The notes beneath the pieces are model-generated. The model was not told the DNA's origin. It did no database searches and worked only from the letters and a program-made list of their open reading frames with translations. A stretch of 64,000 nt of DNA from Stegostoma tigrinum. Lineage: Eukaryota. Every line of letters starts with the position of its first letter. Position 1 is the stretch's first letter. Of this stretch, positions 21,111-59,000 are shown in pieces. Location of the stretch: assembly GCF_030684315.1 (NCBI RefSeq), contig NC_081397.1, positions 4,960,001 through 5,024,000 of the forward strand. Direction: 5' to 3'. The position numbers and the translations under genes were made by a program.

Positions 21111-22089
21111 CATCCTCTGAACTAAACCTCTGAAAATGGAGCACTCTCTCATTACAGACCCTGACAGTGCTACACTGCCTCAGTGCTCACTCACCACAAG
21201 TGCAGCACTCCATTAATAGTGACCCTCCGACAGCGTGGTCCTCCCCTAATATTGGTCCACTGACAGTGCGGCACTCCCTTCACACTGACCTGCTCACAGT
21301 GCAGCACTGCCCTAATATCAAGCCTGCAGCTCTATCAGGGTGAGCAAGTGCCCCATTTTCAGCATGTCAATTCTGAGGCAGTGCACAATGCCCTTTACCG
21401 TACGAGTCATCATCAATACATAGGTGTCAGATTCTGCGCTGTTGATACGGACGTAGTTATCAAACTGTACCTGTCAGTTCATGCTGTGTGATAGTGGGAG
21501 GGTTATTACCAAGCTGATCCTGTCAGTTTCTGCTATATGGATATGTGAAGTTAGTAATCAAAGTGAACCTGAGAGAATCTGTTTGTGAAAATTGGAGTGA
21601 AGTTATCACACTGCACCTCAGAATTTAAAAGAAAAACTGTTCATTTGAACACAGTTATAAAATTGGACCTGTGAAGTTACACTGTGAAACTGGAGTGTTA
21701 TTAACAATCTGATCTTCTCTGTTGCTACGATGTGGATATGCAAGTGTAGTTATCATTCAGGTCCTGGTAGATTGATCTGTGAGCATAGATATTAATTTGT
21801 ACATATCAGTTTTCATAATACGAATTTGAGAATGTTTTTAGCAAACTGTACATCAATATGCGAGCGTCAATCTGTTTTTGCCTGTTTCTACAGGGTGAAT
21901 GATCGAGCAGAGGTAGCAACACACGCTTGTCAGTTTCTATTTGTCAATGTGGCTGAACTTTGGCAGCCAGTAACATTCTCTGTGAGGGTGCAATTTGTTA
22001 TGTGGTAGCTGTTATTCGAATGATTTAATGCAGAATAGATTCAGCTCCTGAGTGTATATTTTGGATGAGTGTTCAGTCTCTCCATCGTC

Positions 22090-22995
22090 AAAAAAATGAC
22101 GTAAACGCCAACAGGCTATGAATGCCAAAATGTGACATTATTGACTTGGTCATCGAGCTGGCTTGTTTTTGTTCACACGTTTTGCCACCATGCTAGGTGA
22201 CATCATCAGTGGAGCCTCTGATGATGCAACATTATTCTCCTCTGCTTGGAATTTACACTGTCAGGCCTGTTATGCTGAGTACTGCCATTTCAGTTTTCAT
22301 TTGTACGGGTTTATACATAGGGTCATACATGGGATCCAATTCTGTGTTTGTGTGGAGAACCATCTAGGAATTCCTGTACATGTTTGTTAGTCTTAGGCTG
22401 CTACGGTTTCTTTATCCAACAAAAACAAAAAGGTGCTGGAAAAGCTCAGCAGGTCTGTCAGCATCAGTGAAGGGAAAAACAGTTCGCCTTTCGGGTTCAG
22501 TGATCTGTCCTCGGAACCAGTTACGGCTGAGCTGCAGACTTTGCTTTTTGCTCCTGATTTACAGCATCCACAGTTCTTTGGTTTTATTTGGTTACTTTGT
22601 CCCAGTTCAACTGATGGCCTTCGTTGTCTGAATGTATCACATACTCAGACAATAAAGGCCATCAGGTCGATATGGGGACAAAGTAACCATGGTAGCCCAA
22701 GCCAAACACAGACACACACAGGAATTCCTAGAGGCATGGTTTTCCAACCAGTCTTCAATCAACAAGCATACAGAATCGGTCCCCATATACGAAAACTCAG
22801 ATCAAAACCAGAAATGACAGTACTCACCATAATGGACCATAACAGTATAAATTCAACTCAAGAGTGGAATGACATTGACACATTGGAGGCTCCACTGATG
22901 ATGCCACTGAGCACGGTGTTGTACTGTATGGAAAAGAAAAAGCAAGCCAGTTCAACAAGCAAGTCAACATTATCCACTACCCGAGCTGCAGATCT
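22090..22995. mobile_element. Penelope-like element of a different family, inverted 3' ends, with a palindromic insert at 22418-22595
   Basis: GAATTCCTAGAGGCATGGTTTTCC...ATCAACAAGCAT (EFLEAWFS...INKH). 22090-22400 is the reverse complement of 22620-22990. Degenerate hammerhead at 22176-22209(-). Confidence 0.7.
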
Positions 22996-23194
22996 TTGCC
23001 AAAAACTTTAAATGCTGAAATTTGTTCAAACTGGGCAGGTGTGCATCGTGAATGTTGAAAAAAACAAACAAAACTTGTATTTCCTCAGTGTTGTTTGAAC
23101 AAATCTCACTGGAAATTGACCTCAACGTGTGTCTGACTCAATCTGCTTTGTGACTGCGGAAAGGATGTTCTCTGCTCTGACAGCTGTAACATAC

Positions 23195-23276
23195 CTTCTG
23201 TTTGTTAGATGCAGCTAGTCACACTTGGCTTTGTGCCAAGGGAATATTACTTTCTCTTAGTCACTCAAGTATTTGG
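23195..23276 (-). other. Putative non-coding exon cassette (82 nt), distal left arm
   Basis: Minus strand CTCTCTTCTGTCTTCCTCCAG|...GAAG|GTATGT; paralogous to three other cassettes. Confidence 0.5.
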
Positions 23277-26200
23277 CTGGAGGAAGACAGAAGAGAGCCC
23301 TCCTGTAAATCACCATCAGCCAACTTTGATAATATTTCATTGATCAATGCAATGTTCAGTTAATAATCATGGCAATATTTCATTTCAAGTCAGGAATCTG
23401 AACAGAATTAGGTGTTTGATGATACTCTTGCTCTGAGCTGCTTCTTTGTCTTGTGATTTTTCTTTTTGTTAATTCCATACCAATTGAGTGAAGTGCAGAC
23501 ACTAAGTGTCCAGATCCACGAATGGGATTACACAATGCGAGTGTGTCTGTGGATATGAGTTTTTGTTGATCTATTCATGTCTCACACCAGCTGAGCCTTT
23601 GTTAAATTACTTATGTATTCACACAGCAGAGACTGGCAGGGACCGATGAGATTCTGCCCTGTGTTTATTTGAGAAGTCAAACTGTACTTGACCGTTGTTT
23701 TCTTTCCCCTTTGTGAATATGAGAATGTCGTTGTCAGTTCTTACCTGATTGTGTGTGATGTGCGAATGTTTGTGTCAGTTTCTGCAAGGTGAGTATACTT
23801 ATCCATCTGTGCCAGTTGTTTTCTGCTATCTGAATGTAGGAGAGTAGGCTTCAATCTTTGCTTCTCAGTTTCTGCTATGTCAACAGGTGAGCTTGGTTTT
23901 TCATCTTTACCTGCAAGTTCCGAGCTTTGAACGTGTGGGTACAATTGTTAACATAATTCTGAATGTTTCTGCTTGTAAAAATGCAACCATATTCATCCAA
24001 TCGTACTTGTCATTTTCAAACAAGTGAATATGAAAATCAGACTGATATCTACATTGTCAGTTTCTGTTCTGTAATTGAGTGTGCTTTTCAGTGTTTAATT
24101 AGTTATTAATTTGTATTATTAATTTAAATGGTTAATTTATTTATTAATTATATTATTAATAATATAATTATTATTACTATGCAGTTACTAATTTGTACCA
24201 ATTTTTCTTGGTTTACAATGTCACGAGAGAGCTGATCTGTACCTGTCAGTTTCTGCTGAGAGTTTATTTATCAAATTGTTCCTGTCAGTTTCTGCTCTGT
24301 CAATCTGAGAGTGCAGTTATTAATCTATACCTGTCAGTTTCTGCAAGGTGAATGAGGGAGTTCTGTTATGAACATACACCATCAGATTCTGCTCAGAGAA
24401 GTGAGAGCAGTTATGCTGCCACCATCAACTTTGCTCTGTAAATCTGATTGCAGTTATTCATCTGCACTTGTCAGTTTCACGTTTGGGCATGTGAGTAATG
24501 TGTTCTCTCCCCAATTGTTTCTTTTCCTTGAATATCAGTTTAGTTATCATCCTGTCCTTGGGGAGGCCAGGGAACTTGGGGAAATAAATATGGATGTCTT
24601 GAAAATAGTCTGCATGACATGAACAGGAGTTGTTAGAGGCAGCAAGAGTAAAAACACAAAGCGGCTGAAACGACAGGACCCAAACAAGTTTTTGTAGATT
24701 TTCAGGATATCAGGATTTTGTGGGAAGCTGTGTTGATAATTTGAACAAATGACATTGTTTTCTTGCTTTCTTGTAATATTTTGAGGGAAGGATCATCCCA
24801 TCCCTGTCACATATTGCAATACAAATGTGTGACTATGGTCATCAAATGTGTACACTCAGTTTCTGTTATGTGAATGTGACAGTGCAGTTATAAATCTCAG
24901 TTTCTGCAGTGATAATGAGAGTGTAATTATCAGTCTGTCAGTTTCTGCTATATCCATATGGGTTTAGTTATTATCAGTACATGTTAGTTTCTGTCATATT
25001 AATGTGACAGTGTCACCAGCCTGCCCCTGACAGTTACTGTACTGAAGGTGCGTGACTGTAGTTACCAAGCTGTAGCTCTCCATTACTGCCATGTGAATGA
25101 GGGTAGTTGTGCACCTACACCTTGGCTTTCTAATGATCAATGTGTGAGTGTCGTTGTCATTTATATACCTGTTTGGATTTGCTTGTCAATCTGAGTTTAG
25201 TTATCGATCTGTACTTGTCAGATTCTGCTGAGAAAATGTATGATTAGTTATCAAACTGTACCTGTCAGTGTAAACAATGTGAAATCGGGAGTTTTATTAT
25301 TAATCTGTTCCTGTCAGTTTTTGCTGTGTGGATATGATAGACGTGTTATCAAAAGTTCAGTCAGTAACTACCATGTGAGCATCGGAGTCTATTTACCGGT
25401 CAGTCCCTGTCCGTTTCAGCTCTGAATCCGAGTGTGCAGTTATTAGTCTGCAACTGGTAGTCTCTGCTACATGACTATTTCAGGACATTCATCAAACTTT
25501 CCCTATCAGGGAGTGAGGGTGCTGTGAATGTGCTTAGCAATTTGGACTTGCCAGTTACGGTATAGAAATGTAAATAACAATTTCTCCTTGTCAGTTTCTG
25601 CTGTATGTGTTAATGAGTGGAGTTAGAAATCTGTACACATGTTTGTACCACACAAATACAGGTACAGATGTGACTCTTTCTCTGTATGTTTCTGCTACGT
25701 GAATACCTAAGCATGGTTATCAATCGGTACTTGCCAGCTGCTGCTTTGTGAATCTGTGAATTTAGTTGTCAGTCCATGCCTGTCAGTTTCTGCTTTAAGA
25801 ATGTATGAGTGCAGTTATCGCTCCATGTATTTGTTTTGAGCAATGGATTGTGTAGAAGCAAAAGGTTTTGTAACTCCAACAGTGCAGAGTCTAACTGGGA
25901 GAAGTTATCAAGGGCTGTTCATAACATCAGATTTTCTGACTGCATAGTAACATAATTCTGTGAATAATGCTGTGGAATAGACAGATGTGGCATTCCTTTC
26001 TTCGAGTCTAAAGGAAAAAGGGCAATGAACAAATCAACTGTATTCAGCTGAATGACCACAATGTTCCTTCTACAGGGAAGGGTATTGGCTAATTCACTTC
26101 ATTATTCTCATGAATATTACATAACCCTGCTCTGTGGCGTGACGGTGCACGGCAGCAGCAATACTCTTATGATGTGCTGTTGTGGGGATGAAGAAAGCAA

Positions 26201-26961
26201 AAGGACTTGTATTTTCTGTCTTACAGTGGAGAAGATTTAAACTTATTGAACATGGTCAAACTCTTTGCCAAAAATAATTGACAAATACAAGATTTAGTTA
26301 CGTGGATCATTCTTGGTGGCTTTAAATGGTGATTACATCATTAATGTGAAGAAACAGCATTCTGTTTTCTGGCTTTTTTTTTGTAATTTCATTTGGAGGG
26401 GCAAGTGACACAAAACTGTTTAACCTAGTCGCCAAATTCACTTCCATGCTTCCCCACCGACGCCACCCTGCCCCCGATCCAAAAAGAAGTTTTGCAAGCC
26501 AGATGGAAAATATGGTTTCTGTTCCTGAAGGTGAACATGTTGAGGATCACATTGTAATGAAGTTGGGGTTGGCAAATCGTATACTGCCATGGCACACTTA
26601 TTGAAATGGAATGCTAGCTGAATGGGATCAGAATTGTCAGGTGCTTGTTTTGGTCTACAATCAACCTGATGGGCTGAAAGGTCTTTTTTCTGTCCTGTAG
26701 ACTCCTCCTCCGCTTATATAAAAAAGCCGTAAACATTTTGTATGTATCCACTTGTTACCTGTAGTGTGTATGGGTATATATTGTTGTTAGTCTTTGTATG
26801 TTATGTGTTCATACAGACAGCATATTTGGGACTCAATGTGAATCAGTCAGCAGCTTTGTGTGTGTGTCTGCATGTGCTCAGTAGTGATTTGCTACTTGCC
26901 AGTAACACTACTTGTCACATGTGGTTGTTGAAACTATGTAACATGATGTCTTTCTTTGAGG

Positions 26962-29945
26962 GGGTAACAAGGTGTAGAGCTCGATGAACAAAGCAGGTCA
27001 GGCAGCAGAGGAACAGGAAAGCTGACATTTTGGGACTGTTAGAAATGGGTGAAGAGAAAGGGACTCTGCAATAAATAGAGAGAAGTGAGGAGATGATAAT
27101 GAAAGGTGGATAAGTACCAGATAGGTGGAGAGAAGATGGACAGGTCAAGGAGGCAGGGCTGGAGCCAGTAAAGGTAAGTGTAGGGAGGGAGTTTGGATGT
27201 GGATTGGTCAGTTGAGGGAAGATGGAGTGGTCAGGGAGGTAGGGATAACACGAGTAGGCCAGAAGTGCAGGTTTGGGTTGGTCAGTGAAGTGGAAGGAGC
27301 AGATTGGTCAGAGAAAAGATGTACAGGTCATGGAGGCAGGGACCTACTGGACGGGTTTGGGGTGGAGAGATTTTGAAGCTCACATTGAGAACATTGGGTT
27401 GCAGGGCTCTCAAGCGCAATATGAGGTGCTGTTTGTGCAGCCTTCTGGTGCAACATTGTGGCAGTAGAGGTAGCGTGGGATGGATATGTTGTCCAAGGAG
27501 TGGGAGGGGGTACTGAAGTGGTTCGCAACTGGGAGTTGCATTTATTTGTCAAGATCAGAGCGTAGGTGTTCAACAAAGCAGTCTCCAAGCCACCGCTTGG
27601 TTTGCCCGATGTCGAGGGGGGCACATCGGGAACAGCGGATACAATGCACCCCATTACCGGACATGTAGATGAACATCTGTTTAATGTGGAAGGTTTTCAT
27701 GGGGCTTGGGATGGGGATAAGGGGAGAGATGTTGGGGCAAGTGTTGCACTTCCTGCTGATGCAGTGAAAAGTGCCAGGGTGGTGGGGCTAGTGGGAGTGT
27801 GGAGTGGACAAGGGAGTCAGAGAGAACAGTACCTCTGGGAGGCAGATAAGGGTCGGGAGGGGAAAAAAGTGTCCGTGGGAGTGGAGTGAGATTGAAGGTG
27901 GCAGAAGTGGTGGAGGTTCATGCCTTGAGTGCAGAGTTTGATGGAGTGATACTTGATGATAAGAGGATATTGTCTTTGTCTTTGAGAGATAATGGGAACT
28001 GCAGATGCTGGAGAATCCAAGATAAAAGTGTGAAGCTGGAAGAACACAGCAGGCCAAGCAGCATCTCAGGAGCACAAAAGCTGACGTTTTGGGCCGAGAC
28101 CCTTCAGACAGGAATGTGGAATAAATAGGGAGCAAGGGGGAGGCAGACCAAAGATGGAGAGAAAAGATGATAGGTGGAGAGGAGAGTATAGGTGGGGAGG
28201 TAGGGAGGGGATAGGTCAGTCCAGGGAAGACGGACAGGTCAAGGAGATGGGATGAGGTTAGTAGATAGGAAATGGAGGTGCGGCTTGAGGAGGGGGTAAG
28301 GGATGGGTGAGAGGAAGAACAGGTTAGGGAGGCAGAGATAGGGTGGGCTGGTTTGGGGAGGCAGTGGGCGAAGGGGAAGACCTGGGCTGCTTTATGGATG
28401 CGGTGGGAGAAGGGGAGATTTTTAAGCTGGTGAAGTCCACATTGGGAACCCTGCATCCCAATGGTGTCAAGAGGAATAGGAGTTGCTGTTCCTGCAACCC
28501 TCAGGTGGCATCATTCTGGCACTGCATGAGGCCCATGATGGACATGTCATCTAAAGAATGGGAGGGGGAGTTAAAATGGTTCATGGCTAGGAGGTGCAGT
28601 TGTTTGTTGCGAACTGAGCAGAGGTGTTCTGCAAAGCAGTCCCCAAGCCTCCGCTTGGTTTCCCCAATGTACAGGAAGCTACACTGGGTACAATGCATAC
28701 AGTATACCACATTGGCAGATGTGCAGGTGAACATCTGCTTAATATGGAAGGTCATCTTGGGGCCTGGGATCGGGGTGAGGGAGGTGTGTGGGCAAGTGTG
28801 GCACTTCCTGCGGTTGCAGGGCAAGGTGCCAGGTGTGGTGGGGTTGGAGGGGAGTGTGGAGCGAACAAGGGAGTCATGGAGACAATGGTCTCTCCGGAAG
28901 GCAGAGAAGGGTGGGGATGGAGAAAGGTCTTGGGTGGTGGGGTCGGATTGTAGGTGGTGGAAGTGTTGGAGGATGATACGTTGTGTCCGGAGCTAGGAGG
29001 GTGGTGTGAGACAACGAGGGGGATCCTCTTGAGGCGGTTGTGGTGGGGGCAGGGTGTGAGGGATGTGTTGCAGGAAATGGAGGAGACGCGGTCAAGGGCA
29101 TTCTCAACCACTGTGGGGGAAGTTTCGGTCCTTGAAGAACTTGGACATCTGGGACGTGCGGGAGTGGAATGCCTTATCCTGGGAGCAGATGCAGCAGAGG
29201 CAGAGGAAATGGGAGTAGGGGATGAAATTTTTGCAGGAGGGTGGGTGGGAGGAGGTGTGTTCTAGGTAGCTGTAGGAGTCGGTGGGCTTGAAATGAACAT
29301 CAGTTTCTCGCTGGTTACCTGAGGGGTCCAGGAAGGTGAGGGATGTGTTGGAGATGGCCCAGGTGAACTTGAGGTTCGGGGTGGAAGGTGTTAGTAGAGT
29401 GGATGAACTGTTTGAGCTCCGTGTGGGAGCAGAAGGCAGCATCGATGCAGTCAGTCATCGATATAATGGTGGAAGTGGGGTGGCGCCAGTGTAGCTGTAA
29501 AAGATAGGCTGGTCCATGTATCCTACAAAGAGACAGGAATAGCTTGGGTCCATGCGGGTACCCATGGTCACCCACTTTGACTGTAGGGAGTTGGGGGGGG
29601 GGGGGTTGAAGGAGAAGATGTGGGTGGTGTCACAGACATCGGTGGGAGTTCCTGGCCTTGGGGAGTGGGGTGGGTGGGTGTAGAAAAGGGAGTTGAGATA
29701 ATTGGAGATAAGTTTGATGGGGCAGGGTCATGCAGAGGCAATGGGTCAACAGGGGCAGTCGGGTTTGTGGATTTTGGGAATGAGGCAGAAACAGTTAACA
29801 TGGCGTTGGGGAAAGATGAGGCTGAAGGCTGTTGGCAGGAGGTTACCTGAGGGGTTGAGGTTGTGGATGGTCTGGGAGATGATGTTTTGGTGATCAGGGC
29901 AGGGTCATGATCAAGGGGGTGGTAGGAGGAGTCTCTCTCTGTCCA
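26962..29945 (-). mobile_element. Nested/tandem Penelope-like elements (RT C-terminus plus GIY-YIG)
   Basis: Minus-strand ORFs with KFTWAISNTSLTFLD, DVHFKPTDS and VVYCMHC...YIGETKRRL. A second PLE end begins at ~27986 inside an older copy. Confidence 0.88.
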
Positions 29946-30251
29946 GTTTGAGGCAAAGTACATTTCCTAAATGTAAACTGGATACAGTTCCTGTTTGAGT
30001 ACTTTCAACAAAGAGTCACCCGTTAACATTTCAAAGATGTGAATGTTGATGGACTATGAATGATGTTAATTGGAACTAGCGGGATGTCAATTGGCAATTG
30101 AAACATTACAAAGAGAAACTTGCCTTTTCTCAGTTGGGATTGGGTGGTTGTTTCCTTGGTCAAGTCTCTGGAAATTGACCTCAATGTAAGTCTGATTCAA
30201 TCCGCTCTGACTATGGGAAAGATATTCTCCATTTTGATCACAGGAACGTGC

Positions 30252-30334
30252 CTGCTGTTAGTTGGAAGCAACTGCACACACTCGGCTTTGTACCGAGGAA
30301 ATATTGCATCAACTGGTTTCTTCAAGTATTTTGC
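30252..30334 (-). other. Putative non-coding exon cassette (83 nt), proximal left arm
   Basis: Minus strand CTCTTCTGTCTTCCTCCAG|...CAGCAG|GCACGT (GC instead of GT at the donor). Confidence 0.4.
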
Positions 30335-30940
30335 CTGGAGGAAGACAGAAGAGATATCTCTCGTAAATCAACATCAGCCAACTTTGACAATATCAAACAG
30401 ATTAACATATTCAGGTACCAGTTATTAGGATGTTTCTTTTCTTGAACTTCACCTCTCAAAGCAGCAGAACTCCAAAAGCTTGTGATTTAAAATAAACCTG
30501 TTGGACCACAACATTGTGTCATGAGAGTTGTGTCTGTTCTTTAAAAGGCATCAATTTAAACACAAGTCTGATTCAATTCTTACATCGAGCTGCTCCTTGG
30601 CTGAGGATTGTGTTTTTAAATATGTAATTCGATACCAAGTGAGTGAGATTCAGAAACTGAGCAATAATTGCACAGCTCCATCTACGGTGCTACCTGAAGA
30701 TGCTACACTGTTGTCACAGCTCATGTTACCAGATCCCAACACACTGACTGTTGAAAGAACAACAGCCGCTATTCCAAATATTTTTCCCGAGACGTATGAT
30801 CTGTTAACTCCAATCTGCGTCCTTTACAGGTCTTCCACTCCACGTCCCACCGCCCAAACCCCGCTCCCGGCAACTCGCAACGAACAGCGTGAAACAGCAG
30901 CCAAACAGTGAATTTGCAGTGTTTAGAAGTCTAAAAGCGA

Positions 30941-31365
30941 CAAGACTGACCCCCAGCAGCTTCTTGCCGCTGTGTCTCCCTCAGCAGGCCCACACACAGC
31001 CCGAGAAAGGCCTCTCTCTCCCCGCCCCCAGGCCGCTCTCTCTCCAAGTTCCGGGACCAGTTCCTGCCCCGCTCGGCCTCTTACCAACAGCCCCCGGTTC
31101 TCCCTGAACTGAGCCCGAATCAATGCCGGTCTCGGAGCCCCCCTCTGTGTCCCGGACTCACATCTCGATGCGCGGCCGGAAGGAGCCTACTGCTCCCTCG
31201 CTTCCGTGGGCGCTGGTCTCTCCATTGCGGCCTGTTTCAAACAAACCTCTTCCACTCACTGAGTAAATGCCCCTCAATGACAGCGCAGGGGGAGGGCCTC
31301 ACGCATGCGCTCCCATGGTCATCAAAAAGCAACATTGGGGGCCGGGCCAGCCTCACGCATGCGCT
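30941..31365 (-). promoter_or_regulatory. CpG-island promoter/first exon, copy A
   Basis: CpG-rich; NRF1-type GCGCATGCGT at 31301-31310 and 31355-31364; downstream donor-like GTGAGT and GTAAGA; inverted near-identical copy at 37918-38287. Confidence 0.65.
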
Positions 31366-31915
31366 GTTAGCCCCATTTTTTTAAAACAGAGTTTGCAGGC
31401 AGCGCGGACCGGACACGGGATCATTGCCTGATCTGTATGTACCATTCAGGAGGGAAGCGCGGGGTTTAATACAGCCCAGGCAAACTGATCAACCGGCTGG
31501 GTAACCGTGGTTAATCAATCTTATCAAACCCGCCAATTTAAACAACTTCAAAGCGATTAATTACAGAATCCCTTTTTTTTTCGGGGCATGTTTAATTTGT
31601 AATTGCAGTTGCTGCCTGAAATGTATTTCGCAGGCAAATGGAAGGAATAACCGTTAAAACATCGCCAGAGATCGTAGCATCAAAGTTAGATAAAATATCA
31701 TTCCTGGAAGGGTTATACTGCAATGTGCGACATTAGTGCCTGGGCAGAATTACAATCCGTGGGAGGAAATAACCAGATGCAGTTCCAGTGACCCTCCCGA
31801 CATGATACCATCCTCATTTTCAGTCTCCGCTCTAGGAAATGTGATATTTGAGTTACTAGAATCAATTCAAATTTATGCTCTGTCTGCACTCGGAACCGGG
31901 ACAGGGATAATTTGA

Positions 31916-32095
31916 CTTATAGACGGAGCTGCAGATGCTGGACAATGTGACATAAGGTGTAGAGTTGGATGGACAGAGCGAGCCGAGCAGCATCAGAGGA
32001 GCAGGAAGAAGGATCTAGGTCCGAAACGTCAGCTTTCCTGCTCCTCTGATGCTGCTTGACCTGTTATGTCCAGCCAGCTCTCCACCTTGTTCTCT
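31916..32095. mobile_element. Palindromic PLE-end element inserted just 3' of the H1 processing signal
   Basis: Inverted arms; 14-bp target duplication CAGGGAT(A/C)ATTTGA at 31902-31915 and 32096-32109; absent at the paralogous site near 62780-62800. Confidence 0.85.
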
Positions 32096-32117
32096 CAGGG
32101 ATCATTTGATCCGGGCT

Positions 32118-32159
32118 CAGCTCTTTCCTGGAGAGATGTGGGTGGCTCTGAGAAGAGCC
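32118..32159 (-). terminator. Histone 3' stem-loop and histone downstream element (HDE) of H1
   Basis: Minus strand GGCTCTTCTCAGAGCC-ACCCA (32144-32159), then CAGGAAAGAGCTG (32118-32130). Confidence 0.93.
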
Positions 32160-32195
32160 TTTGGGTTCAGGTGGTGACACATTACAACGACTGCT

Positions 32196-32834
32196 TCATT
32201 TCTTTGCTGCTTTCTTGGTCACTTTCGCTTTGGCCTTCGCCTTCGTTCTCACCGATTTCGGGGCCGGTTTTGCGGCCTTGGGGCTCTTGGTCTTTTTCAC
32301 CTTCTTCACGGGAGTCTTTTTCTGAGGCGCTGCTTTCTTCGCCGCTTTCTTTGGCGTTGCTGCCTTCTTGGCGGCCGCTTTCTTTCCTGTTGCTTTCTTG
32401 GCTGGGGATTTCTTCGCTGCCACCTTCTTGGCCGTTGTTTTCTTCACAGCTGCTTTCTTGGCGGCTGCTGCGGGTCTCGCCTTCTTTCCCACTTTTGCCT
32501 TGACCTGATTCTTTGGGAGTTTGAAGGAGCCGGAGACGCCCTGGCCCTTCACCAGAACCAGGGAGCCTTTCGCCAGGCACCTCTTGGTAGCCATCCTGAT
32601 CTGTGCATTCTGCTTCTCCACATTGACCCCGCTTCTCTGCAGCGCCTTCTTTATAGCGGCCAGAGACGTCCCCTTCCGATCGCTGTTCTCCCCGACAATC
32701 TTCACAATCCGCTCGCCCAGCCCGGGACCGGCTGGTTTTTTCCTGGGGGCCGCCGCCTTCTTCTTCTTGGGAGCCTTGGGTTTGGTGCTGGCGGAGGCTG
32801 GAGGAGCCGTTTCGGCAGCTGCACTGTCGCTCAT
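32196..32834 (-). CDS. H1: Linker histone H1 (212 aa)
   Basis: MSDSAAAETAPPA N-terminus, globular domain (RKGTSLAAIKKAL...GSLVLVKGQGVSGSFKL), Lys/Ala/Pro-rich tail with SPAK/TPKK motifs; intronless, with stem-loop. Confidence 0.96.
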   Translation of the reverse strand: MSDSAAAETAPPASASTKPKAPKKKKAAAPRKKPAGPGLGERIVKIVGENSDRKGTSLAAIKKALQRSGVNVEKQNAQIRMATKRCLAKGSLVLVKGQGVSGSFKLPKNQVKAKVGKKARPAAAAKKAAVKKTTAKKVAAKKSPAKKATGKKAAAKKAATPKKAAKKAAPQKKTPVKKVKKTKSPKAAKPAPKSVRTKAKAKAKVTKKAAKK

Positions 32835-32980
32835 GTCGGGAACTCTGCGCTGAATCTCTCTCTGTCAGACTGAACTGGGTCAGCAATGAAGCTGCTGGTG
32901 GCGGCACTGAGCAACTTCAAGGCAGCGAGCGGACGGCGCGGAGACAACCTGCCCTCAGCTCCCTGCTCCTGCTGCCTCTC

Positions 32981-35499: not shown

Positions 35500-35940
35500 A
35501 GTAATGAGAAGGGGAGTTGAACTGGTCGCGACTGGGAGGTGCAGTTGTTTACTGCGAGCGTAGATGTTCTGCAAAGCAGTTCCCAAGCCTTCGCTTGGTT
35601 TCCCCAATGTACAGAAAGCCACACCGTGTACAGCGGATGCAGTACACCACATTGGCGGACATGCAGGTGAACATCTGCTTGATGTGAAAAGTCAACTTGG
35701 GGCCTGGGATGGGAGTGAAGGAAGAGGTGTGGGGGCAAGTGTAGCTTGTGTAGCAAGTGTAGCAAGTGCAACCACTTCCTGTGGTTGCAGGGCGTGGTGG
35801 GATTGGACAAGCAAGTCATGGAGAGAGTGGTCTCTCCAGAAGGCATGCAAGGGTAGGGTGGGAAAAATGTCTTTGGTGGCTGAGTCGGATTGTAGATGGC
35901 AGAAGTGTCGCATTGTATTGGAGGTTGGTGGGGTGGTAAT
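35500..35940 (-). mobile_element. PLE GIY-YIG fragment
   Basis: Nucleotide match to the GIY-YIG region of other PLE copies; ORF 35692-35946(-) RHFCHLQSD...PLHAFWRDHSLHD. Confidence 0.8.
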
Positions 35941-36757
35941 GAACATAGAACAATACAGCGTAGAACAGGCCCTTCGGCCCTCAATATTGCTCCGAACTGC
36001 AAACTGATCTAAACCCCTCCCCCTACACTATCCCATCATTATTCATATGCTTATTCAAGGACTGTTTAAATGCCCCTAATGTGGCTGAGTTAACTACATT
36101 GACAGGCAGGGTGTTCCACGCCCTTACCACTCTGAGTAAAGAGACTACCTCTGGCATCTGTCTTAAATCTATCACTCTTCAATTTGTAGCTATGCCCCCT
36201 TGTACAAACTGAAGTCATCATCCTCGGAAAAAGACTCTCACTATCTAATCCACTGATCATCTTGTATGTCCGTATTAAATCACCTCTTAGCCTCCTTCTC
36301 TCCAATGAGAACTGACCCAAGTCCCTCAGCCTTTCTTCATAGGGCCTGCGCTCCAGACCAGGCATCATCCTGGTAAATCTCCTTTTCACCTTTTCCAATG
36401 CTTCCACATCCTTCCTGTAATGGGGAGGGGGGACCAGAACTGCATGCAATATTCCAAATGAGGCCGCACGAGCGTTTTGTAAAATTACATCATGTCATCA
36501 CAGCTCCGGAACTCAATCCCTCTACCAATAAAACCTATCACACCATAAGCTTTCTTAACAGCACTATCAACCTGGGTGGCAACTTGCATGGATCTATGTA
36601 CACGGACAACATGATCCAAAGCACATCCGCACTACCAAGAATCTTTCCATTGATCCAGTATTCTACCTTCCTGTTATTCCTCCCAAAGTGAATCACCTCA
36701 CATTTATCCATATTAAACTCCATTTGCCAACTTTTGGCCCAATTCTGCAGTTTATCC
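35941..36757 (-). mobile_element. CR1 LINE 3' fragment
   Basis: ORF 36090-36449(-) YRKDVEALEKVKRRFTRMMPG...ERRRLRGDLI; TGTTCTATGTTC tail at 35941. Confidence 0.88.
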
Positions 36758-37540
36758 AAGTGGAGGTGGTCGCCTGAGATGGAGACAGAAAGGTCCAGGA
36801 AGGTAAGGGATGTGTTGGAGATGGTCCAGGTGAACTTGACGTTGGGATGGAAGATGTTGGTGAAATGGATGGACTGTTTGAGCTCCTCTTGGGAGCATGA
36901 GGCAGCGCCGATACATTCATCAATGTGACGGAAGAAGAGGTGGGGTTTGAGGCCAGTGTCGGTGCGGAAGAGGGACTGTTCCACATAAGCCACAAAGAGG
37001 CAGGCATAGCTTGGGCCCATTCCTCAGACGACATGACCATCCTGGGCATCTTGCAGTGCCATAATGATGCCACCGGTAGGTTGCATGAACATCAATTCAT
37101 ATTCCGCTGCGGAACCCTGCAGTCCAATAGCATCAATGTGGATTTGACCAGCTTCAAAATCTCCGCTCCCACCACTGCATCTAAAAACAAGCCCAGCTCG
37201 TACCAGCCTGCCTAACCTGTTCTTCCTCTCACCTATCCCCTCCTCCCACCTCAAGCTGCACCTCCGTTTCGGACCTGCTAACCTCGTCCCGCCCACTTGA
37301 CCTGTCCGTCCTCCCCGGACTGACCTATCCCTTCCCTACCTCCCAACCCATACTCTCCTCTGCACCTATCTTCTCCTCTGTCCACCTACGGTCCGCCTCC
37401 CCCTCTCTCCGTATTTATTTCAAAATCCTCTCCCCCTCCCCTTTTCTGTTGAAGCGCCTCGGCCCGAAACGCCATCTTTTTGTGTTCGTAAGATGCTGCT
37501 TGTCAGCTGTGCCCATTCAGCCCCACACTTTGTTATCATA
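36758..37540. mobile_element. PLE with 5' inversion (RT part minus strand, 3' end plus strand)
   Basis: MGPSYACLFVAYVEQ...FFRHIDEC on the minus strand switches at ~37016 to plus-strand SSDDMTILGILQCHND; degenerate hammerhead ~37446-37473. Confidence 0.8.
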
Positions 37541-37864
37541 AGATTAGGCGTGATGTTTTGAATTAGGGAGCACATCTAACGGGCCGAATGGCCGTTAGTT
37601 ACTCCACTTGCCCACCAGATTGTGAGAGCCGGAGGGAGGGAGTTATTAACATGGTCCGGGAAACGATCGAAACTCATCGTTCAGCTTCTGTTTCACGCTC
37701 TTTTTTTTGCGAATTTGTATTGAATCGTGGGAAAGAAAAGTCATTATATACAAACGGTCTCTGCTCTTTCCCCCACGGCCCCCAGTTGCTTTGCTGAAAC
37801 TGGGTGGAAAGTGAATTGGGGAAATGATCAATTGATCACTGTTTCTGGGAATTACTTGGAAAAG

Positions 37865-38287
37865 TAGCGCATGCGCGATATTCCCCCCGAAAAAGAGGTG
37901 CAATTGGCTGTTGAGTGGAGCGCATGCGTGAGGCCCTCCCCCTGCGCTGCCATTGAGGGGCATTCACTCAGTGAGTGGAAGAGGTTTGTTTGAAACAGAC
38001 CGCAATGGAGAGACCAGCGCCCAGGGAAGCGAGGGAGCAGCAGGCTCCTTCCGGCAGCGCATCGAGATGTGAGTCTGGGACAGAGGGGGGCTCCGAGACC
38101 GGCATTGATTCGGGCTCAGTTCAGGGAGAACCGGGGGCTGTTGGTAAGTGGCCGAACGGGGCAGGAACTGGTCCCGGAACTTGGAGAGAGAGCGGCCTGG
38201 GGGCGGGGAGAGAGAGGCCTTTCTCGGGCTGTGTGTGGGCCTGCTGAGGGAGACACAGCGGCAAGAAGATGCTGGGGGTCAGTCTTG
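37865..38287 (+). promoter_or_regulatory. CpG-island promoter/first exon, copy B
   Basis: NRF1 motifs GCGCATGCGC 37867-37876 and GCGCATGCGT 37920-37929; donor consensus GTGAGT 38069-38074 and GTAAGT 38144-38149. Confidence 0.65.
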
Positions 38288-38852
38288 AGGTTTTCAAATC
38301 CCCAACCACTGATGGAAATTCCTTGTTTGGCTTCTGTTTCATGCTGTTTGTTGACATTGTGCAGTCAAAGCCGAAACACAGACAAGACTGGAAATATAAG
38401 AACCCTGTAAAGGACATGGATTAGAGTCAATATATTCTACAGTCAGTGCATTGGGATTTGGTAACATGAGCTGCGCAGACATTGCAGTGGCTCTGGGTAG
38501 CACCTTACGTGGAGCTGTACAATTATCGTTCCATTTCTAGATTTTACCCAATTGCTATCGAAGCAGATATATTTTTTTAAAAATCCTCAGACAAGGCGCA
38601 GCTGAAAGTTAAAATGGAATCAGACCTGCATTTGAATTGATGACTTTAAAGAAAAGGTAGATGTCTCATGACACTGTCATCATCTCTCAGGTACTTTTGA
38701 AATGACAGGCTTTTGGAGCACCGTTCTTCAGAAGAAGTTAAAGAAAAGAAACATCCTAATAATTATTACCTGAGTATTACAGTAATCTTTTTGACATTTT
38801 AAAACTTAACTGATGTTGATTTACAGGAGTAAACTCTGCTGTCTTTCCCCAG

Positions 38853-38934
38853 GAAAACGCTTGCAGGAACAAGACGATGTAATGTGTGCTTGGTACGAAG
38901 CCAAGGGTGACCAGCTGCTTTGAACAACCAACAG
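38853..38934 (+). other. Putative non-coding exon cassette (82 nt), proximal right arm
   Basis: CTCTGCTGTCTTTCCCCAG|GAAAACG...AACAG|GTATGT. Confidence 0.5.
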
Positions 38935-39774
38935 GTATGTTACCATGTCCAAGCAGAGAACATCCTTTCCACAGGCACAGAGCAAATTGAGTCAGAGATA
39001 CATTAAACTCAATTTCTGGTGACATGCGTGCAAGCCAACAGTCAAGCACAAACAACAAAATAAAAATAGTTTTTTTTCCCCCTCTGTTTTCTCAATACAC
39101 CACCCTGCTTCAAAAAAGATCATTTGTAGCCTATTGGCATTTATGGCATTTTTGAAAGTGAATAGACTGAATTTTCATCTGAAATAGACACAAAAGAATG
39201 GCAGTAAACCTACATTTAGTAAGCATGTTTTCAAATTTACTGTCAAGGTGAAGAAATCTTTCATGCTGTTACATAGTTACACCAACCAAACATATAGCAG
39301 ATAATGAGGACAGATATGGAAGAAAACATTGACGTTATCATCAGTAACTGAGCAGGACAGCATTCATCTTTTGTCAAATAGATGTCCCAGGCACAGCCAG
39401 AACAGTTAATTAATGTGCCTTCCAAATGCACATCCTGTCCCAAAGCCTGACGTAGAATGCCAGCAGAGTGTATGCACACACTTTCTGGCACACACGCACT
39501 CCACTGAGTTGTAAATATATACACTATCCCCATCACACGTGTCACACCATCTAACAGCCATGAAGATCATGTATATTGCAAACCTCACAGTGTAACAATG
39601 AAGATGATTTCCACTCACGGATTTCAGGTCAGAGAGCTAGCCTTTCATGATAAGTGACAAATAGAAAAGAATGTGAGCTAAATACTTCAATCCTCGTGTG
39701 GACATGCACTCCCGTGTTCATAATGTCAATATCACTCATTCACTGTATTTGGGGAAAAAAGGACAAATTTTGAG

Positions 39775-40565
39775 GAGTTCAGTTCAGGCAAATGCGAGGT
39801 GATGCATTTTGAAAGATCCACTTCAAGAGCGAATTATGTGGTAAATGGCAAAGCCCCAGCAAAAGTTGATGCCCAGAGAGATCTGGGTGTTCAGGTCCAT
39901 TGCACCCTGAAGGTGGCAACGCATGTCGATAGAGTGGTCAAGAAGACATAGTGCATTCTTTCCTTCATCAGATGTGTCATTTAGTGCAAGAGTTGGCAGG
40001 TCATGTTACAGTTGTATAGGGCTTTGATTTGAACACATTTGGAATATTGTTTTCGGTTCAGGTCACCACATTACCAAAAGGAGGTTGATGCTTTGGAGAA
40101 GGTGCAGAGGAGGTTCACCAGGATGTTGCCTGGTATGGAGGGTGCTAGCTATGAAGAGAGTTTGAGTAGATTAGGATTATTTATATTGGAAAGATGGAGG
40201 TTGAGGGGGAACTTGATTGAGGCCTACACAGTCATGAGATGAATTGACGGGGTGGATAGCAAGAAGCTTTTTCCAAGAGTGTGGAACTCTCTGACTACGC
40301 GTCATGATTTCAAGGTGAGGGGCAAAAGTTTAAGGATGATATGCATGGAAAATTCTTTACACAGAAGGCTTTGGGTGCCTGGAATGCGTTGCCAGCGGAG
40401 GTGGTAGAGGCGTGCGTTATAGTGTCCCTTAGTATGTATGTAGACAGATAGGTGACTGGACAGGGAGCAGAGGGATACAGATCCTTGGAAAATAGGTGAC
40501 AGGTTAAGATAGGGGATATGGATCAGCACAGGCTTGGAGGGCCAAAGAGCCTGTTCCTCTGCTGA
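39775..40565 (+). mobile_element. CR1 LINE 3' fragment
   Basis: ORF 40039-40242 EYCFRFRSPHYQKEVDALEKVQRRFTRMLPG. Confidence 0.85.
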
Positions 40566-43500
40566 AATGTTTTTTTTTGTTCTTTGACACACTGAATTCC
40601 CAAGAAGTAGTCCAAGAAATATATCGAACAAGAGATTAATTTCACCTCTCTGTGTCACCATCTCATCGACTTAGAGATAATTAAAGTATCATTTCCTTTT
40701 GTACAAACTGGAGAAATTGCACATCAGGATAACTTTCAGGTTGAAATTGAAATTGATATTGTCATTGCATTTGTTTGCATAAAACTACAAACTGAATAGT
40801 GAAAACCATCTGATACACTTCCAATGAATATAAACTTTGCTATTAAATGGACCAGAAGGAAATCAAGTAGTGACCTGAAATGATACAGAGAATAACCTAC
40901 ACTCAAGCAGATAACCTAGATTGTTGACTGTACAATTAAGAATGTCTCATACAGTGAGCTTGCAACAACAAATGGACATTAAACTCTATATGTATCCAGA
41001 CCAGAGACAGAGCAAGCCGAAATAAAAGACAGAAACCCTACCCTAGAAATTATACAGGGAGAGAATGATAAATGCATTCACAAACCAGATAATGTCAGGC
41101 ATAGCCTAAAAACTCACCTCTCAGATTTAAAGGACAGGATCTGACAGGGCCAAATGGTTAAATACACTTGCACAGCCAGAGAGAAGAAACTGACAGGCAC
41201 GTATTGATAACGGCATACTCATATTCACATATCAGAAAATGACAGGGACAGAAAGATAATTACACACACATTCAGACTACAAAAACTGACAGGTACAGGC
41301 TGATAAATACATGCATACATGACAGGACAGCAAATGCATAAGCATATGTAGATTGATAACTACATTTGCGTATTCACAGACAAATTTGACAGGGACATAT
41401 TTGTAACACTTTGACATTCACGCAAGAGGAATTGATGGATATAGGTTGATAACGAAACTCACATATTTCACAGCAGAAACTGAGAGGGACAGTTTGATGA
41501 TTACGCTCATATCTTCACGTGACAGCTACCGACAAGTACGAAGCGATGATTACCACTCTCACACACACAAATTCATAGACGTCTGCAGCACAGGAAACAG
41601 TCCTTTCTCTCACTGAATCTGCACTGTTCAGAAACAACCAGCCGACAATTCTACATCAATTCAGCCAGTAATCAAATTCCATAAATGTGTCATGTTGGCA
41701 GAGGAAGTATCATCCTCACCTTTATCAGTTGTCAATTTCTTCACCAAGCATGATCAGATTTTTTTTATTCTATGTTAAGCAAGAGGACTTTATAATCAGA
41801 GACCTTTTGTTTTCAAATTAGCTTAAAATTTGTTCAAATAGCTCTGTTCCTCTTGACAATCCACCTGAATTTTTACATAAAACACAAGAAAGCTTCATGC
41901 CGTTTTTTTCAAACAAGCAAGATCACAATAGAACCGCCCTCACTTATATTTCGCAAACATTGTTCAACAGTGTTTACTCTTCAGTAAATTCAGTTTGACG
42001 GTTCCAGTTGTGCCCAGTGAATGACAGAAAACAAAAGTTCAACACCGAGCATGTTAATGTCCGCGCCATAAAACGAAATCCAAGTAAGAAGGCTAATTTT
42101 CTTTCCTGCACAAGCAACATTGTGGTCAGTCAGCCGCAATGCATTTGATTTGTTCATTGCACTTCCTCTTTGGCAATAACATACTAAATTAACATCTTCA
42201 CTTTAGCAGCATTCCAAGACTTGTGTTACTATGCAATGTTGAATAATATTAATCTCATCCTGAAAATATCCTTTGATATCACCACAGCGGTTAGACTCTG
42301 CAATGTATCCTTGGCAAAGGTCGATTGCTTCTCTGTCCTCAACTCTAAAGAAAGGCACAGACTCATTTCAGTTGCAATGCCTTGCATTTTCACTTGCTTA
42401 TAAATGCTGGAGGCACAAACAACTGAAGAATATAGGCTGTTTCACATTTGCGAAAGAAGAAATGAACCGAAAACTCTGTCCTCTGCCATGGTGGTAATTG
42501 GCTCTCCACTTTGCAAGAAATACTTAATCTGCTCAGTAACGCAATACAGGAAGATAGAAATAGGATCAATTGAGTGTACCTGTCTGTCTTGTTTCATAAC
42601 AGCAGCTCTTGTGCCAATACACCGTAGGTACAGAATAACTTAGAAAGCGTGGAGATGCTGCCAGGTTAGTAGATACCCAGGCAAAAACAAAAGAAAATGC
42701 CATTTCTCTTAAATATCACATGGGTGGGAAAGCTCCCCTTTCATGACGCATTAATAGGACAGGGTAAGAGCGAAGTACTTCAATCCCAGGATGTGAATAC
42801 TTTCCTTGAGGATTAAGTATGAGGTATAAGCTTGGCATAAAGTAAATTCGTCATGTTCACTACATCAGAAAATACTGAATCGATTGCATGATCAATGATG
42901 AATTCTACTGAAACAGCTCAAGAAGTAAATTGAAATCCAGATTAAATATGCTTCCAAATATCACACCATGCCTTTGATTTGGACACGTAACTAGTGCATC
43001 AATTTCCTTTGTTGAAACTGAAGGAAATATATAGTAGGCCAAGTTTAAAATGAAATAAACATTACAATTTAATTTGCTTCCAAAGCGGTACAAATTAAAA
43101 AGCAGCTCTCATCTCGTGCAGAAGTACTGCATAAAGATGTTGTTAAATGGACCAAAGAAGAAAGCAAATGGGGTCGTGAACAGATACAGATAACTGGAGT
43201 TTATTGGAAAAAGATTGAAGAAACGCTGATCTCATGATCTTGTTACAGGAGGAATAAATACACATTCAGTTTCTGAGTGACTGACCAATCCCGAACGAAA
43301 CTTACTATCATAAACCGGACAGTGACCAAACTGTATCCACAGAGTCGGAGACTGACAAAGGTATTAAAACAGTTTAATTTACATGATCTGATTATTTGGC
43401 ATTGGGTAAAATCTCATTCATGTTGAGCAGCAGAGATTTGAACAATAGAAGAATGTCAGCAGTTCCTACAAGTAACTTGTTCAATGCAACATTACCCACT

Positions 43501-44589
43501 TGTTACCCATGTGAAATATGAAGACAACGCATGAGGAATACATTGACACACAATGCCAGAGACTGAATCGATCCCATGCTGACTGTCAGCCCGATGCTGA
43601 TGAAAACCAGCAGTAACCACACTTATAATCTGAGTGGGAGACTGACTATTTCAGAAGAATGCCCACACTCTCTTTGTGATTAATGTATTATAAATTAGTG
43701 TTATAATGATATAATAATTTATAATACACCTCATAAAGGGAATCCAATCATACATGCAGAGCTGGAAACACAAGCAGAAATTTGGAAAAGGACAGTGTCA
43801 CTTAGCCCAATACCCATCTTTCATTCAGATTGGCACCTCATTAGAAATCTCCCTCTCATACAACAAACAGATGCTGAAAGGAAAGGAATGAAATTGATAC
43901 CTTTGGTCGGCATGGACTGTTGGACCAAAGGTCTGTTTCCCAGATGTACTTTGACAATATTTCTGCACTCTCATATTCACAAAGCAGAAACTGATCAGAA
44001 GAAACTCACAGTAACACTCCCAAGCCGCATGAGGCATAAAATGGCATAACAAGGCAGCTATATTCACAGAGTAGAATCTGATAGGGGGAAATAACAATTA
44101 TATTTCCATATTCAAATCACAGAAACTGATTGGAAAAGGTTTACAACTGCACTTCAACATTCACACTGCAGGTAATGACAGGGACAGATTGATAACAATG
44201 TCCGTATATGCACATGGCCAAGAATGATAGGTAGAAATAGATAACTGTATTCTCGTATTCATGGAGAGGAAAGCATTACAAATTCATAACTACATTTATA
44301 TATTCACATCACAAAAACTGATAGTTGCAGATGAATAACTACATTCTCAGGTTCCCAGAGCAGACGTGGACAGATACAGATGGAAATTTGCACTCAAATA
44401 TTCACGTTGCATGTTCACACATCATTATCAACAGATTAATTACAAAACTCACATCTGTATAACACAAATAGACACTGATTGCTGTGTGAAGGTGCAATTG
44501 TATTTTTCAATCAGTCCCTGTCAGTTTTCACAACGTGGATGTGTGATTTTAGTTATCAATCAATACCTGTCAGTGAATGCCACGTGAAT

Positions 44590-45790
44590 GTGTGAGGATA
44601 GTGTAATGCACGTTAACTACAGGGATTTTAGTAAGACATTTGATAAAGTACCATGCAGCAGACGAATCAGAAATGGAAAGGCTTTTGGGATACGGAGCCA
44701 TGTGCTAAATTGGAAGCAAAGTTTGCTTTGCAACAGGAATCAAATGGTCAATGGCTGCCCTTGTAAACCGAAAGCTGTTTGAAGTGGTGTTTCTCATAGC
44801 TCAGTGTTGGGACATCTGCTGTTTGTTTTATGTGATAACAACTTGGACTTGAACATGGGGATACAATTGGGAAATTTTCAGCCAGCACAAAAATTTAACA
44901 GTGTACTGGTAGTGCAGAGGATAGCTGACAGCTCCAAAATGATATAGAAGTTTTGGTGGAAGGGGCAGATGAGTGGCATATGGAGTTCAACTCTGATAAA
45001 TGTGAGGTAATGCATTTCAGGAGGTGCAAGGACACAAAATAGGAATACATGAGGTGGTGTGGAAATAGTACATAAAGTGAGTGATTTGGTGTGCAAGTGT
45101 AATGGAGTATGAAAATAGCAGTACAGGTGGATAAGATTGTGAAACTAGGTATATAGAATGCTGCCCTTTTTTGGCAGAGGTATACAACACAAAAGTAGGG
45201 CTATAACGATGAAAGTATTTAAGACACTGGTGAGGCTGGAACTGATGTATTGTGCGCCACGATGGTCACCACATTACAGGAAAACGTTATTGCTCTGGAT
45301 ATATTGCAGAGAAGATTTACTGGAATGTTGCCAGGGCTGGAGAGTTACAGCTATGAGGAGTGATTGCAGAGGTTGGAGCTATATTATTTTGAACAGTGAA
45401 AGCTGGGAGTGCCATGATTCAGGCAATTGGGATGGGCAGAGATAGAGTCAACAGGGGGAATCTGTTTCCCTTGGCATAGAGTTTAAAAACCATTGGGTGT
45501 GGATTAAGTGAAGTGGCAGGACGATGAGAGATGATGGGAGGAAAACCATTTTTATGAGAGGTTGCTTACCTCAAATACGCTGCCTGAGCTGCTGATAGCA
45601 GAGATTCTCAACTCTTGTAAGAACATACCTGGACCTCCACATTAAGTCTGCAAGCTGCAGGGCTATGGGATGTATGCAAGAAGATCATATTTTATGATGG
45701 CCATTTTGGGGTGTTTGGGTCAGCATGGATATAATGAGCCAAATGGCCACCTTCTGTGCTGCATAATTTAAATGGATCAATAGTTCCTGA
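44590..45790 (+). mobile_element. Degenerate CR1 LINE
   Basis: ORFs with YRDFSKTFDKVP and FKTLVRLELMYCAPRWSPHY. Confidence 0.8.
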
Positions 45791-46200
45791 TCATTCTGTC
45801 CCTGTCAGCCTCTGTTGTGTAATACATGAATAATTACCAAAGACCTCGAGGGACACATTGATAACTACACTCACACATTCACCAAGTAGCAACTGACATG
45901 AATAGATCAAGAACTAAACTCGGATCCACTGACAAGCTTCCACTGGGTGGTTCCAGTCATGGAGCTGTACAGGTATCATTTACTTTCAGGAGCTCATTCA
46001 AATGGTGTTGAAGTTTTTAGAAATGATCAGACAAGGAGCAGCTCGGGCAAGATTGGATCAAAACCCATAGTTATGTAAGAATTCCTAGTAATATTAGTAT
46101 ATCCAAATGATTATTAATGAAATGTTGTGTTGATCAGTTAAACATTGTCAAACCCAATTGATGTTGCTTTACACGAACTATCTCTTCTGTCTTCCCGCAG

Positions 46201-46289
46201 AAAAAAAGAAAACACTTGAATGACCAAGACAAAGTAAGATTTCTTCAGTGCAGAGGCAAGTGTGACCAGATCCTTCTGATAAACAGCAG
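46201..46289 (+). other. Putative non-coding exon cassette (89 nt), distal right arm
   Basis: CTCTTCTGTCTTCCCGCAG|AAAAAAAG...CAGCAG|GTAGGT. Confidence 0.5.
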
Positions 46290-47424
46290 GTAGGTTCCCA
46301 CTGTCAGAGCAGAGAACATCCTTTCCGCAGTCACAGAGCAGATTGAGTCGGACACACAGTGAGCTTAATTTCCAACAGATATGTTCAAATTTTTCCAACA
46401 GGAGAACAACGTTGGAGAAATTAAACTTTATTTTTCTTATCTCTCCATTCCAAATACACAGTTCCAACAAATTTCAGCATTCATCACCCATTGACTTGTA
46501 CACTATTTTTGAAGATGGATGAACTGAAGTTATACACTCAGTATCTGAAAGAAATCTACGTAAAATACTCTACTAGCAATTATCACATAATGAATCACAC
46601 CTCCACTAAGAATATTACTGGCTGCTGACAATTAAGCCACTTTTACAAGTAGAAAATGACCAGTATGGATTGATGCCTAACCTCACTCATTTGTGTTGCA
46701 AATGCATACAAAAGAAAAAGGATGACGAGACTCACATATTGACATTGCAGAAACCGACAGCTAAAGATTAATAAAGGTATTCACACATTCACATCATAGA
46801 AACTGGGATACACAGGTTAGTAAACAACACTCACATTCACATAGCAAACTGACAGCAACTGAACGATAACTACTTTCACATATCCACACAGCAGAAACTG
46901 GCAGCTACATATTGATGACAACTCCCAATTTCACAGACCATAAAGTGACAGGTACAGTTTTATAACTGCATACCCACAGATTTCAAAAATACCGACGGGT
47001 ACAGTTTGATAACTATACTCAAATATTCACAAAGTAGATTCCCACAGGTACATATTGATAACTTTACTTGCAAATTATGAGGTACTGATAGGTACAGGGT
47101 GCTCTACATGCATATATCCATACAGAAGAAATTCGTGGAACTGATTGACGATCACTTTAGAGATAGCAAGAGCTGCAGATTCTGGAGTCAGCCTTCCCAG
47201 TTTCACAAAGCATTAGCTGACAGATACAGTTTGGTAACTCCTCTCATGTTCACAGAGTAGAAGCTGACAGGCCGTTATTGATAACTGCACTCACATGGTC
47301 ACCAAGCAGAAACTCAGAGATTGATAACAGTGACATTCAAATTGCAGAAACTGGCGGCTACACAATGATAGCTGCTGTCACACTTGCATTGCATGAACCG
47401 TTGGGGTCAGATTAATAACTATGC

Positions 47425-58484: not shown

Positions 58485-59000
<516 letters not shown>

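Follow-up and report, generated by a model that had tools for sequence, protein, structure and literature searches.

Replication-dependent histone genes are, by the textbook account, intronless and yield non-polyadenylated mRNAs, and the resupply of histones in non-dividing cells is known mainly from mammals. We analysed 64,000 nucleotides of the zebra shark, Stegostoma tigrinum (contig NC_081397.1, positions 4,960,001 to 5,024,000 of the forward strand; hereafter the window), a vertebrate histone cluster with open reading frames (ORFs) for H1, H2B, H2A, H3 and H4. On either side of its H1 gene lies an outward-facing arm consisting of a CpG-rich promoter with a first exon, followed by two exon-bearing modules (modules 1 and 2). 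By a reading to which we give roughly even chances, each arm is an old copy, inverted relative to the other, of a promoter-plus-non-coding-exon cassette residing in a multi-copy histone unit, and this cassette would provide histone genes with a second, spliced route of expression that is probably independent of the cell cycle.

The closest described systems are human cluster histone genes (HIST1H2BC, H2BD, H2BK, H2AC, H4H and HIST2H4) that form spliced, polyadenylated mRNAs in differentiated tissue; as far as the available part of that report goes, three H2B genes lose their stem-loop by splicing, the donor follows the stop codon and leaves the protein unchanged, and HIST1H1C is polyadenylated without splicing (PMC5100578). 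The H1 and H2B genes of the window are likewise cluster genes with a 3' stem-loop (RF00032), and in gene models H1 reads through this stem-loop and splices to a downstream non-coding exon, as in mammals. As modelled, the locus differs in that the H1 donor lies inside the coding sequence and the protein is changed, in that H2B gains 5' exons from a promoter 18 kb away, and in that all these exons come from one repeated cassette. By analogy, the cassette may work like the mammalian spliced isoforms, less the unchanged protein and with a 5' leader added.

A 5'-extended RNA from a distal promoter also recalls the long undecoded transcript isoforms (LUTIs), which carry upstream ORFs and are transcribed over the normal promoter, according to the portions available of PMC8153250, PMC6469420 and PMC8829799. 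The modelled H2B leader would share with them the distal promoter, the 5' extension and the upstream ORFs (4-5 in all six modelled leaders); unlike a LUTI, it spans 18 kb by splicing and belongs to a multi-copy histone gene, and any repression or poor translation would here be an argument from analogy. Transcripts that run on from histone clusters into satellite DNA have been described in the oocytes of newt and Xenopus, as cited in the part available of PMC11602149. Transcription in the shark cluster would similarly cross flanking satellite and neighbouring genes; there it starts from histone promoters, whereas here a separate CpG-rich promoter with spliced exons is involved.

Mirror-image arms around the H1 gene

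The arms were compared by aligning the window with itself, and copy number and linkage were drawn from protein records and summed contig depth. Mirror-image landmarks were recovered in the order and orientation that an earlier note on this DNA had described. The promoter and exon 1 lie at 30878..31365 on the minus strand (left) and 37865..38353 on the plus strand (right; candidate donors 38068 and 38143), and are 92.9% identical over 439 nt (31313-30878 vs 37917-38353). Within them a core (30941-31313 vs 37917-38287) agrees in 361 of 373 columns (97%) and ends at sharp edges in flanks of 60-70%, a pattern that, on sequence grounds, points to gene conversion, selection or both. GC content is 0.63 in the left promoter, and the CpG observed/expected ratio is 0.65 there and 0.63-0.65 across copies, compared with 0.41 for the window; each promoter contains two GCGCATGCG palindromes (31302 and 31356 on the left, 37867 and 37920 on the right), presumably of the NRF1 type.

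Beyond the promoters follow module 1 (left 30171..30755, minus; right 38435..39016, plus; 72.6% over 594 nt, E 3e-86), two short shared segments (26018..26080, minus, and 42101..42164, plus, 84.4% over 64 nt, E 6e-13; 26650-26588 and 41632-41694, 74.6% over ~63 nt) and module 2 (left 23094..23581, minus, with an 82-nt candidate exon at 23276-23195; right 45895..46389, plus; 70.4% over 506 nt, E 5e-58) with its tail (22058-21553 vs 46531-47063, 65.6%). The weakest landmark has an E-value of 2.5e-5, and the modules lie below 1e-57. Together the six landmarks make up ~2.1 kb, or ~22% of each arm, the remainder being retroelement and satellite; the arms are a mosaic remnant, and the large inverted duplication of the earlier note holds for its landmarks, not as a continuous repeat.

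A satellite with a unit of ~47 nt is strand-mirrored as well, pointing outward on both arms as previously claimed: the minus strand carries 37 of the 38 profile hits at 21-26 kb, and the plus strand 63 of the 67 at 41-56 kb. On the left, a first block occupies 23700..25820 (minus), and a second, found by profile hits and self-comparison together with the module 2 tail, 21400..22060 (minus); on the right, patches among retroelement pieces cover 41000..55700 (plus). The right satellite goes well beyond the boundary of 47,400 that had been assigned to the duplication, extending to 55.7 kb, just short of H2B. H1 (32196..32834, minus, 212 aa) does lie between the arms; it is not a neutral centre, since its stop codon is ~0.9 kb from the left promoter and on the strand of the left arm.

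Modules 1 and 2 are related to each other, the four copies being 68-75% alike in the exon. Two insertions are common to the modules 1 and absent from the modules 2, which would fit a tandem duplication followed by inversion. Within the window, the promoter occurs at two places and the module at four only.

Splicing between the right-arm modules is seen in contigs of sequencing runs, which were compared over 37600-48700: X1, X2 and X4, probable RNA runs from three studies, and X7, which is DNA-like. They were drawn from ten matching runs, none of them recorded as RNA, of which six are probable RNA runs (shares 0.05-0.09) and four DNA-like. The RNA nature of the first three is a guess, and the contigs come without strand, ends or level; 15 of 137 joints were listed. 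The listed RNA-run pieces are mostly ~86-97% alike to the window and so presumably stem from relatives or sister copies, and several X7 pieces are 98-99% alike. The right promoter and exon 1 are covered in X1, X2 and X4. A contig of X2 joins 38934 to 46209 over 7,274 nt with GT..AG ends at depth 64; its left side comprises 82 letters, the whole of the predicted module-1 exon (38853..38934, plus), and three A lie between the sides. The same junction is found in X4, with 16 diverged letters between the sides at the exon end, and both rows have depth 0 in X1 and X7. The predicted junction from 38934 to module 2, proposed in the earlier note, is therefore present as GT-AG in contigs of two of the three probable RNA runs and absent from the listed joints of the DNA-like run, and the right-arm non-coding exons are real. 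The module-2 exon (46201..46655, plus) begins at 46201 or 46209 and ends either at a GC donor after 46255, as in H2B models, or continues to at least 46655, as in X2.

These exons are neither coding nor structured. The four modules share a similar 50-residue frame, which is open in one prediction from Chiloscyllium (P0011) and interrupted by stops in three of the four copies, and no reading frame is preserved from copy to copy. Counted by codon position, the four exons show 50/56/43 differences, and pN is 0.30 against a pS of 0.20; with no codon-position bias, pN not below pS, no Pfam hit above cut-off and no PDB hit, we rejected a protein-coding or processed relic. The protein atlas held nothing usable for the module frame, and a candidate protein, P0010, proved to be an unrelated repeat protein. 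Conservation among the four modules is highest in the acceptor region, where it reaches 0.81 around the branch point and 0.86 at the AG, compared with 0.68-0.75 in the exon body; splice signals have thus outlasted the exon body after ~30% divergence.

Small nucleolar RNA (snoRNA) host genes of the GAS5 and SNHG type have short, poorly conserved non-coding exons with better-kept sequence adjoining, and the modules resemble them in both respects. The conserved stretch after each donor has the layout of a loose hairpin-hinge-hairpin, with an ANANNA hinge in three of the four copies; the ACA triplet follows the second hairpin in two of four, and in X2 the stretch is exonic. Rfam models at gathering thresholds over the whole window, and at E up to 10 over 21-48 kb, gave only histone stem-loops above cut-off, and ARAGORN found no tRNA gene in the window. 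Folding z-scores ran from -1.9 to +0.9 for 12 segments and from -1.0 to +0.2 for the four post-donor copies, and two-sided change, seen in 2 of 16 pairs, was reached by 58 of 500 shuffles. Unlike an H/ACA host gene, with its two-hairpin intronic RNA, H/ACA boxes and covariation, the locus thus lacks an Rfam match, a remarkable fold, significant covariation and boxes in all copies, and a snoRNA or microRNA host was rejected. MicroRNA-like Rfam hits at 31965-32077 are spurious, the sequence there being two head-to-head pieces of a short interspersed element (SINE) after H1.

Gene models joining the arms to H1 and H2B

A search with the module translation among longer proteins revealed a cluster of zebra shark RefSeq proteins (P0002 and relatives) that consist of H1 residues 1-194 followed by the translation of left module 1. 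In the window the corresponding donor, TCG|GTGAGA, lies after codon 194 (32253/32252) and the acceptor at 30335/30334, giving a GT-AG intron of 1,918 nt in the models that contains both the H1 stem-loop (32119..32164, minus) and the left promoter. The left module-1 exon (30197..30334, minus) is read through its GC donor (after 30252) to a stop at 30199-30197, so that the last 18 of 212 residues would be replaced by 45 new ones. P0008 matches residues 1-194 of the window H1 without a difference and continues with the identical module-1 translation; the tail of P0006 is identical to it too. The tail is present in seven of the eight members of the cluster, with seven distinct H1 parts and five distinct tails, all encoded on one 15.6-Mb contig. 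Since seven distinct H1-plus-tail proteins come from one contig, the unit is multi-copy.

A profile search led to a second cluster (P0015 and relatives), in which four of six members are H2B proteins with N-terminal peptides from the right-arm exons. P0015, P0019 and P0020, late histone H2B.L4-like isoforms of Stegostoma tigrinum, begin with module-1 peptide and continue with the start of module 2 up to the GC donor after 46255; P0018 has module-1 peptide only, in another frame. All four models use the 82-nt right module-1 exon and enter H2B (56114..56494, plus, 126 aa) at one site, a pyrimidine tract with CAG at 56102/56103 (acceptor region 56070..56113, plus; the exon starts at 56103), which precedes the ATG by 11 nt and lies ~18 kb from the promoter. 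The H2B stem-loop (56534-56579, plus) is followed by an AATAAA at 56784. The module 1-module 2 junction of these models agrees with that of the contigs, which lends weight to the rest of the models. Several models carry two or three accessions per protein, which in the NCBI pipeline usually denotes transcript-supported isoforms. Some H1 and H2B accessions moreover follow one another almost directly (XP_059498000-002 with XP_059498003-004; XP_059497900 with XP_059497902-905), a hint, short of proof, that the unit of arm, H1, arm and H2B is repeated as a whole. The earlier note had seen no recognisable host ORF in either arm; no intact one exists there, yet arm exons do stand in frame with histones in RefSeq proteins.

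Proteins of Chiloscyllium point the same way. Besides the open module frame of P0011, module peptide occurs in P0012, where it breaks off at the module donor, in P0013 after an exon-1 peptide (56% over 55 residues to right exon 1), and in P0014 after an H2B start; P0011, P0013 and P0014 are hypothetical predictions. As judged from these sequences, promoter, module and histone occur together in a second genus, bamboo sharks sharing the exon family. The promoter pattern had no match in metagenome contigs.

On the reading of the cassette as a second route of expression, the CpG-rich promoter would fire outside S phase. Most of its RNA would end in module 2 and be non-coding, and some would continue into H2B, joining the module-1 exon, optionally followed by the first 47-55 nt of the module-2 exon, to the acceptor before the H2B start. 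With its 4-5 short upstream ORFs, the modelled leader would give little H2B, and would either supply the histone at a low level or damp the normal H2B promoter. H1 would read through to the left module-1 acceptor, with the stem-loop and left promoter cut out of the spliced RNA. Within the window, tblastn with the four core histones detected neither a histone gene nor the remains of one past the left arm, so that any left-arm counterpart of the H2B leader would be hypothetical.

Competing explanations

Several observations weigh against such a route. Both histone junctions are taken from computed RefSeq gene models checked against the splice sites of the window, not from reads. The H2B models with leaders differ from the window H2B at two residues and thus derive from sister copies; in the window copy, stops close both N-terminal extensions, and the upstream ORFs of all six modelled leaders terminate ahead of the H2B ATG. 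At 2.7 bits, within the top 3-4% of GT sites, the H1 donor is weak, neither AATAAA nor ATTAAA occurs within 300 nt downstream of the left module-1 stop, the new tail is three times as variable among copies as the H1 part (6.3% vs 2.1%), and protein searches found no H1-plus-tail protein of another species. The contigs, from runs of guessed nature, without strand or level and representing relatives or sister copies, include no exon-1 junction (38068 or 38143 to 38853) among the 15 of 137 joints listed; a contig of X1 is unspliced across both candidate exon-1 donors (38060-38275), and that of X2 passes the module-2 donor at 46255 and runs to 46655, a transcript that does not reach H2B. This long X2 exon, the upstream ORFs, the reading frames that are not kept between copies and the weak H1 donor with its faster-changing tail favour an explanation that we regard as possible, if doubtful: a family of spliced non-coding transcripts present in many copies, or what survives of the 5' end of a dead gene family, resides in the histone unit, and the fusions are chance exon capture with no role. 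Gene conversion alone could account for the 97% promoter core and its sharp edges, and the summed X7 depth of 1,071 over the promoter, against 43-231 in bins without common repeats, is a hint of many copies. Chance capture sits less well with splice signals that outlast the exon body, with the recurrence of the same two histone junctions in seven H1 and four H2B model proteins, and with the promoter piece of X1, which at 6 letters and 4 gaps in 216 is less diverged from the window than the other listed X1 pieces.

The earlier note had proposed a pair of long non-coding RNA (lncRNA) genes, here taken as free-standing, that could act as a nuclear scaffold or small-RNA host. Spliced exons free of coding constraint, a CpG-rich promoter and the post-donor hairpins agree with this proposal; however, the exons are shared with coding genes in four H2B and seven H1 models, and at this level the arms splice to known genes inside the window itself, right-arm exons to H2B and H1 to left module 1; splicing to a known coding gene is an outcome that the note itself had named as refuting. 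A small-RNA precursor, in turn, draws no support from Rfam, folding or covariation, the ACA triplet is present in half of the copies, and the stretch concerned is exonic in X2, so that we consider a functional lncRNA pair improbable. The note's own alternative, 5' untranslated exons, is the part that fits best, given the H2B-leader models. Least probable of all, in our judgement, is decayed duplicated sequence with dispersed repeats, in which the fusions are annotation artefacts of a repetitive cluster. Unalignable repeat makes up ~78% of each arm, the support underlying the RefSeq models is not visible, the RNA runs are guessed and three of the Chiloscyllium proteins are hypothetical; but a GT-AG joint that spans 7.3 kb, falls exactly on the predicted exon ends in two studies, lacks depth in the DNA-like run and matches three RefSeq proteins is hard to obtain in this manner, and within the window the promoter and modules are confined to their two and four places. 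More far-reaching than a second route as such, and in our estimate unlikely, is the idea that carpet sharks built the cassette into their histone unit and homogenised it across copies, switching S-phase histone genes to spliced, stem-loop-independent forms; H2B would then be made from a housekeeping promoter 18 kb away, and H1 would have a variant whose 45-residue tail arose from non-coding sequence.

If histone genes do use the cassette, it would represent a second solution for resupplying H2B and H1 in non-dividing cells of a long-lived vertebrate lineage. It would also offer a case, open to testing, in which non-coding DNA has given rise to a new protein tail. Should the fusions prove to be noise, the results still account for a set of odd histone annotations in sharks and take the locus off the candidate stand-alone lncRNA pairs. 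No description of the cassette was found in the literature, shark papers included (10.1101/2025.06.08.657570; PMC10620051; PMC11433378), which was represented mainly by open-access texts without supplements, and no close match was found for an upstream exon or alternative promoter of a replication-dependent H2B gene or for cryptic splicing that creates a new H1 C-terminus.

The surrounding histone cluster and its repeats

To the right of H2B lie ORFs for H2A (58608-59000), H3 (60215-59805) and H4 (61409-61098); H2A is followed by an Rfam stem-loop, as are H1 and H2B. Residues 2 and 58 set the H2B of the window apart from every one of the six zebra shark members of the H2B cluster, and the exact sequence of this H2B was absent from the protein collection searched. 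The intergenic region between H2B and H2A (57104-58413) contains three short direct repeats of 34-92 nt, 73-85% alike, possibly duplicated regulatory elements. Upstream of H4 and on the same strand, 62783-62930 (minus) holds the decayed remains of another H1 gene, comprising its 3' end and stem-loop region and matching the end of the intact H1 at 82.6% over 149 nt. The gap between H1 and the left promoter (31393-31713) resembles the H4-H3 intergenic region at 60539-60671 (72% over 100 nt, E 1e-7; 80% over 44 nt), as if the left promoter stood at the position that the H3 gene has in the core unit.

A different, degenerate satellite with units of 16 and ~33 nt, GGAGTGCTGCACTG-like and in blocks of both orientations, occupies 16900-21320 and starts where the left arm ends. 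Retroelement copies at 27100-29900, 35500-35940, 48720-49810 and 50680-52070 make up much of the left arm and of the gap before H2B; their weak match to GIY-YIG (E 0.026) is below cut-off. At 5716-6987 (plus) an open 423-aa reverse transcriptase frame (Pfam RVT_1, E 9e-30) marks a fairly young piece of a long interspersed element. Finally, head-to-head SINE pairs form long hairpins at 1708-1907, 9694-9792, 19696-19853, 22141-22967, 31954-32088 and 50215-50311, the one at 9694-9792 being a 99% palindrome of 99 nt.

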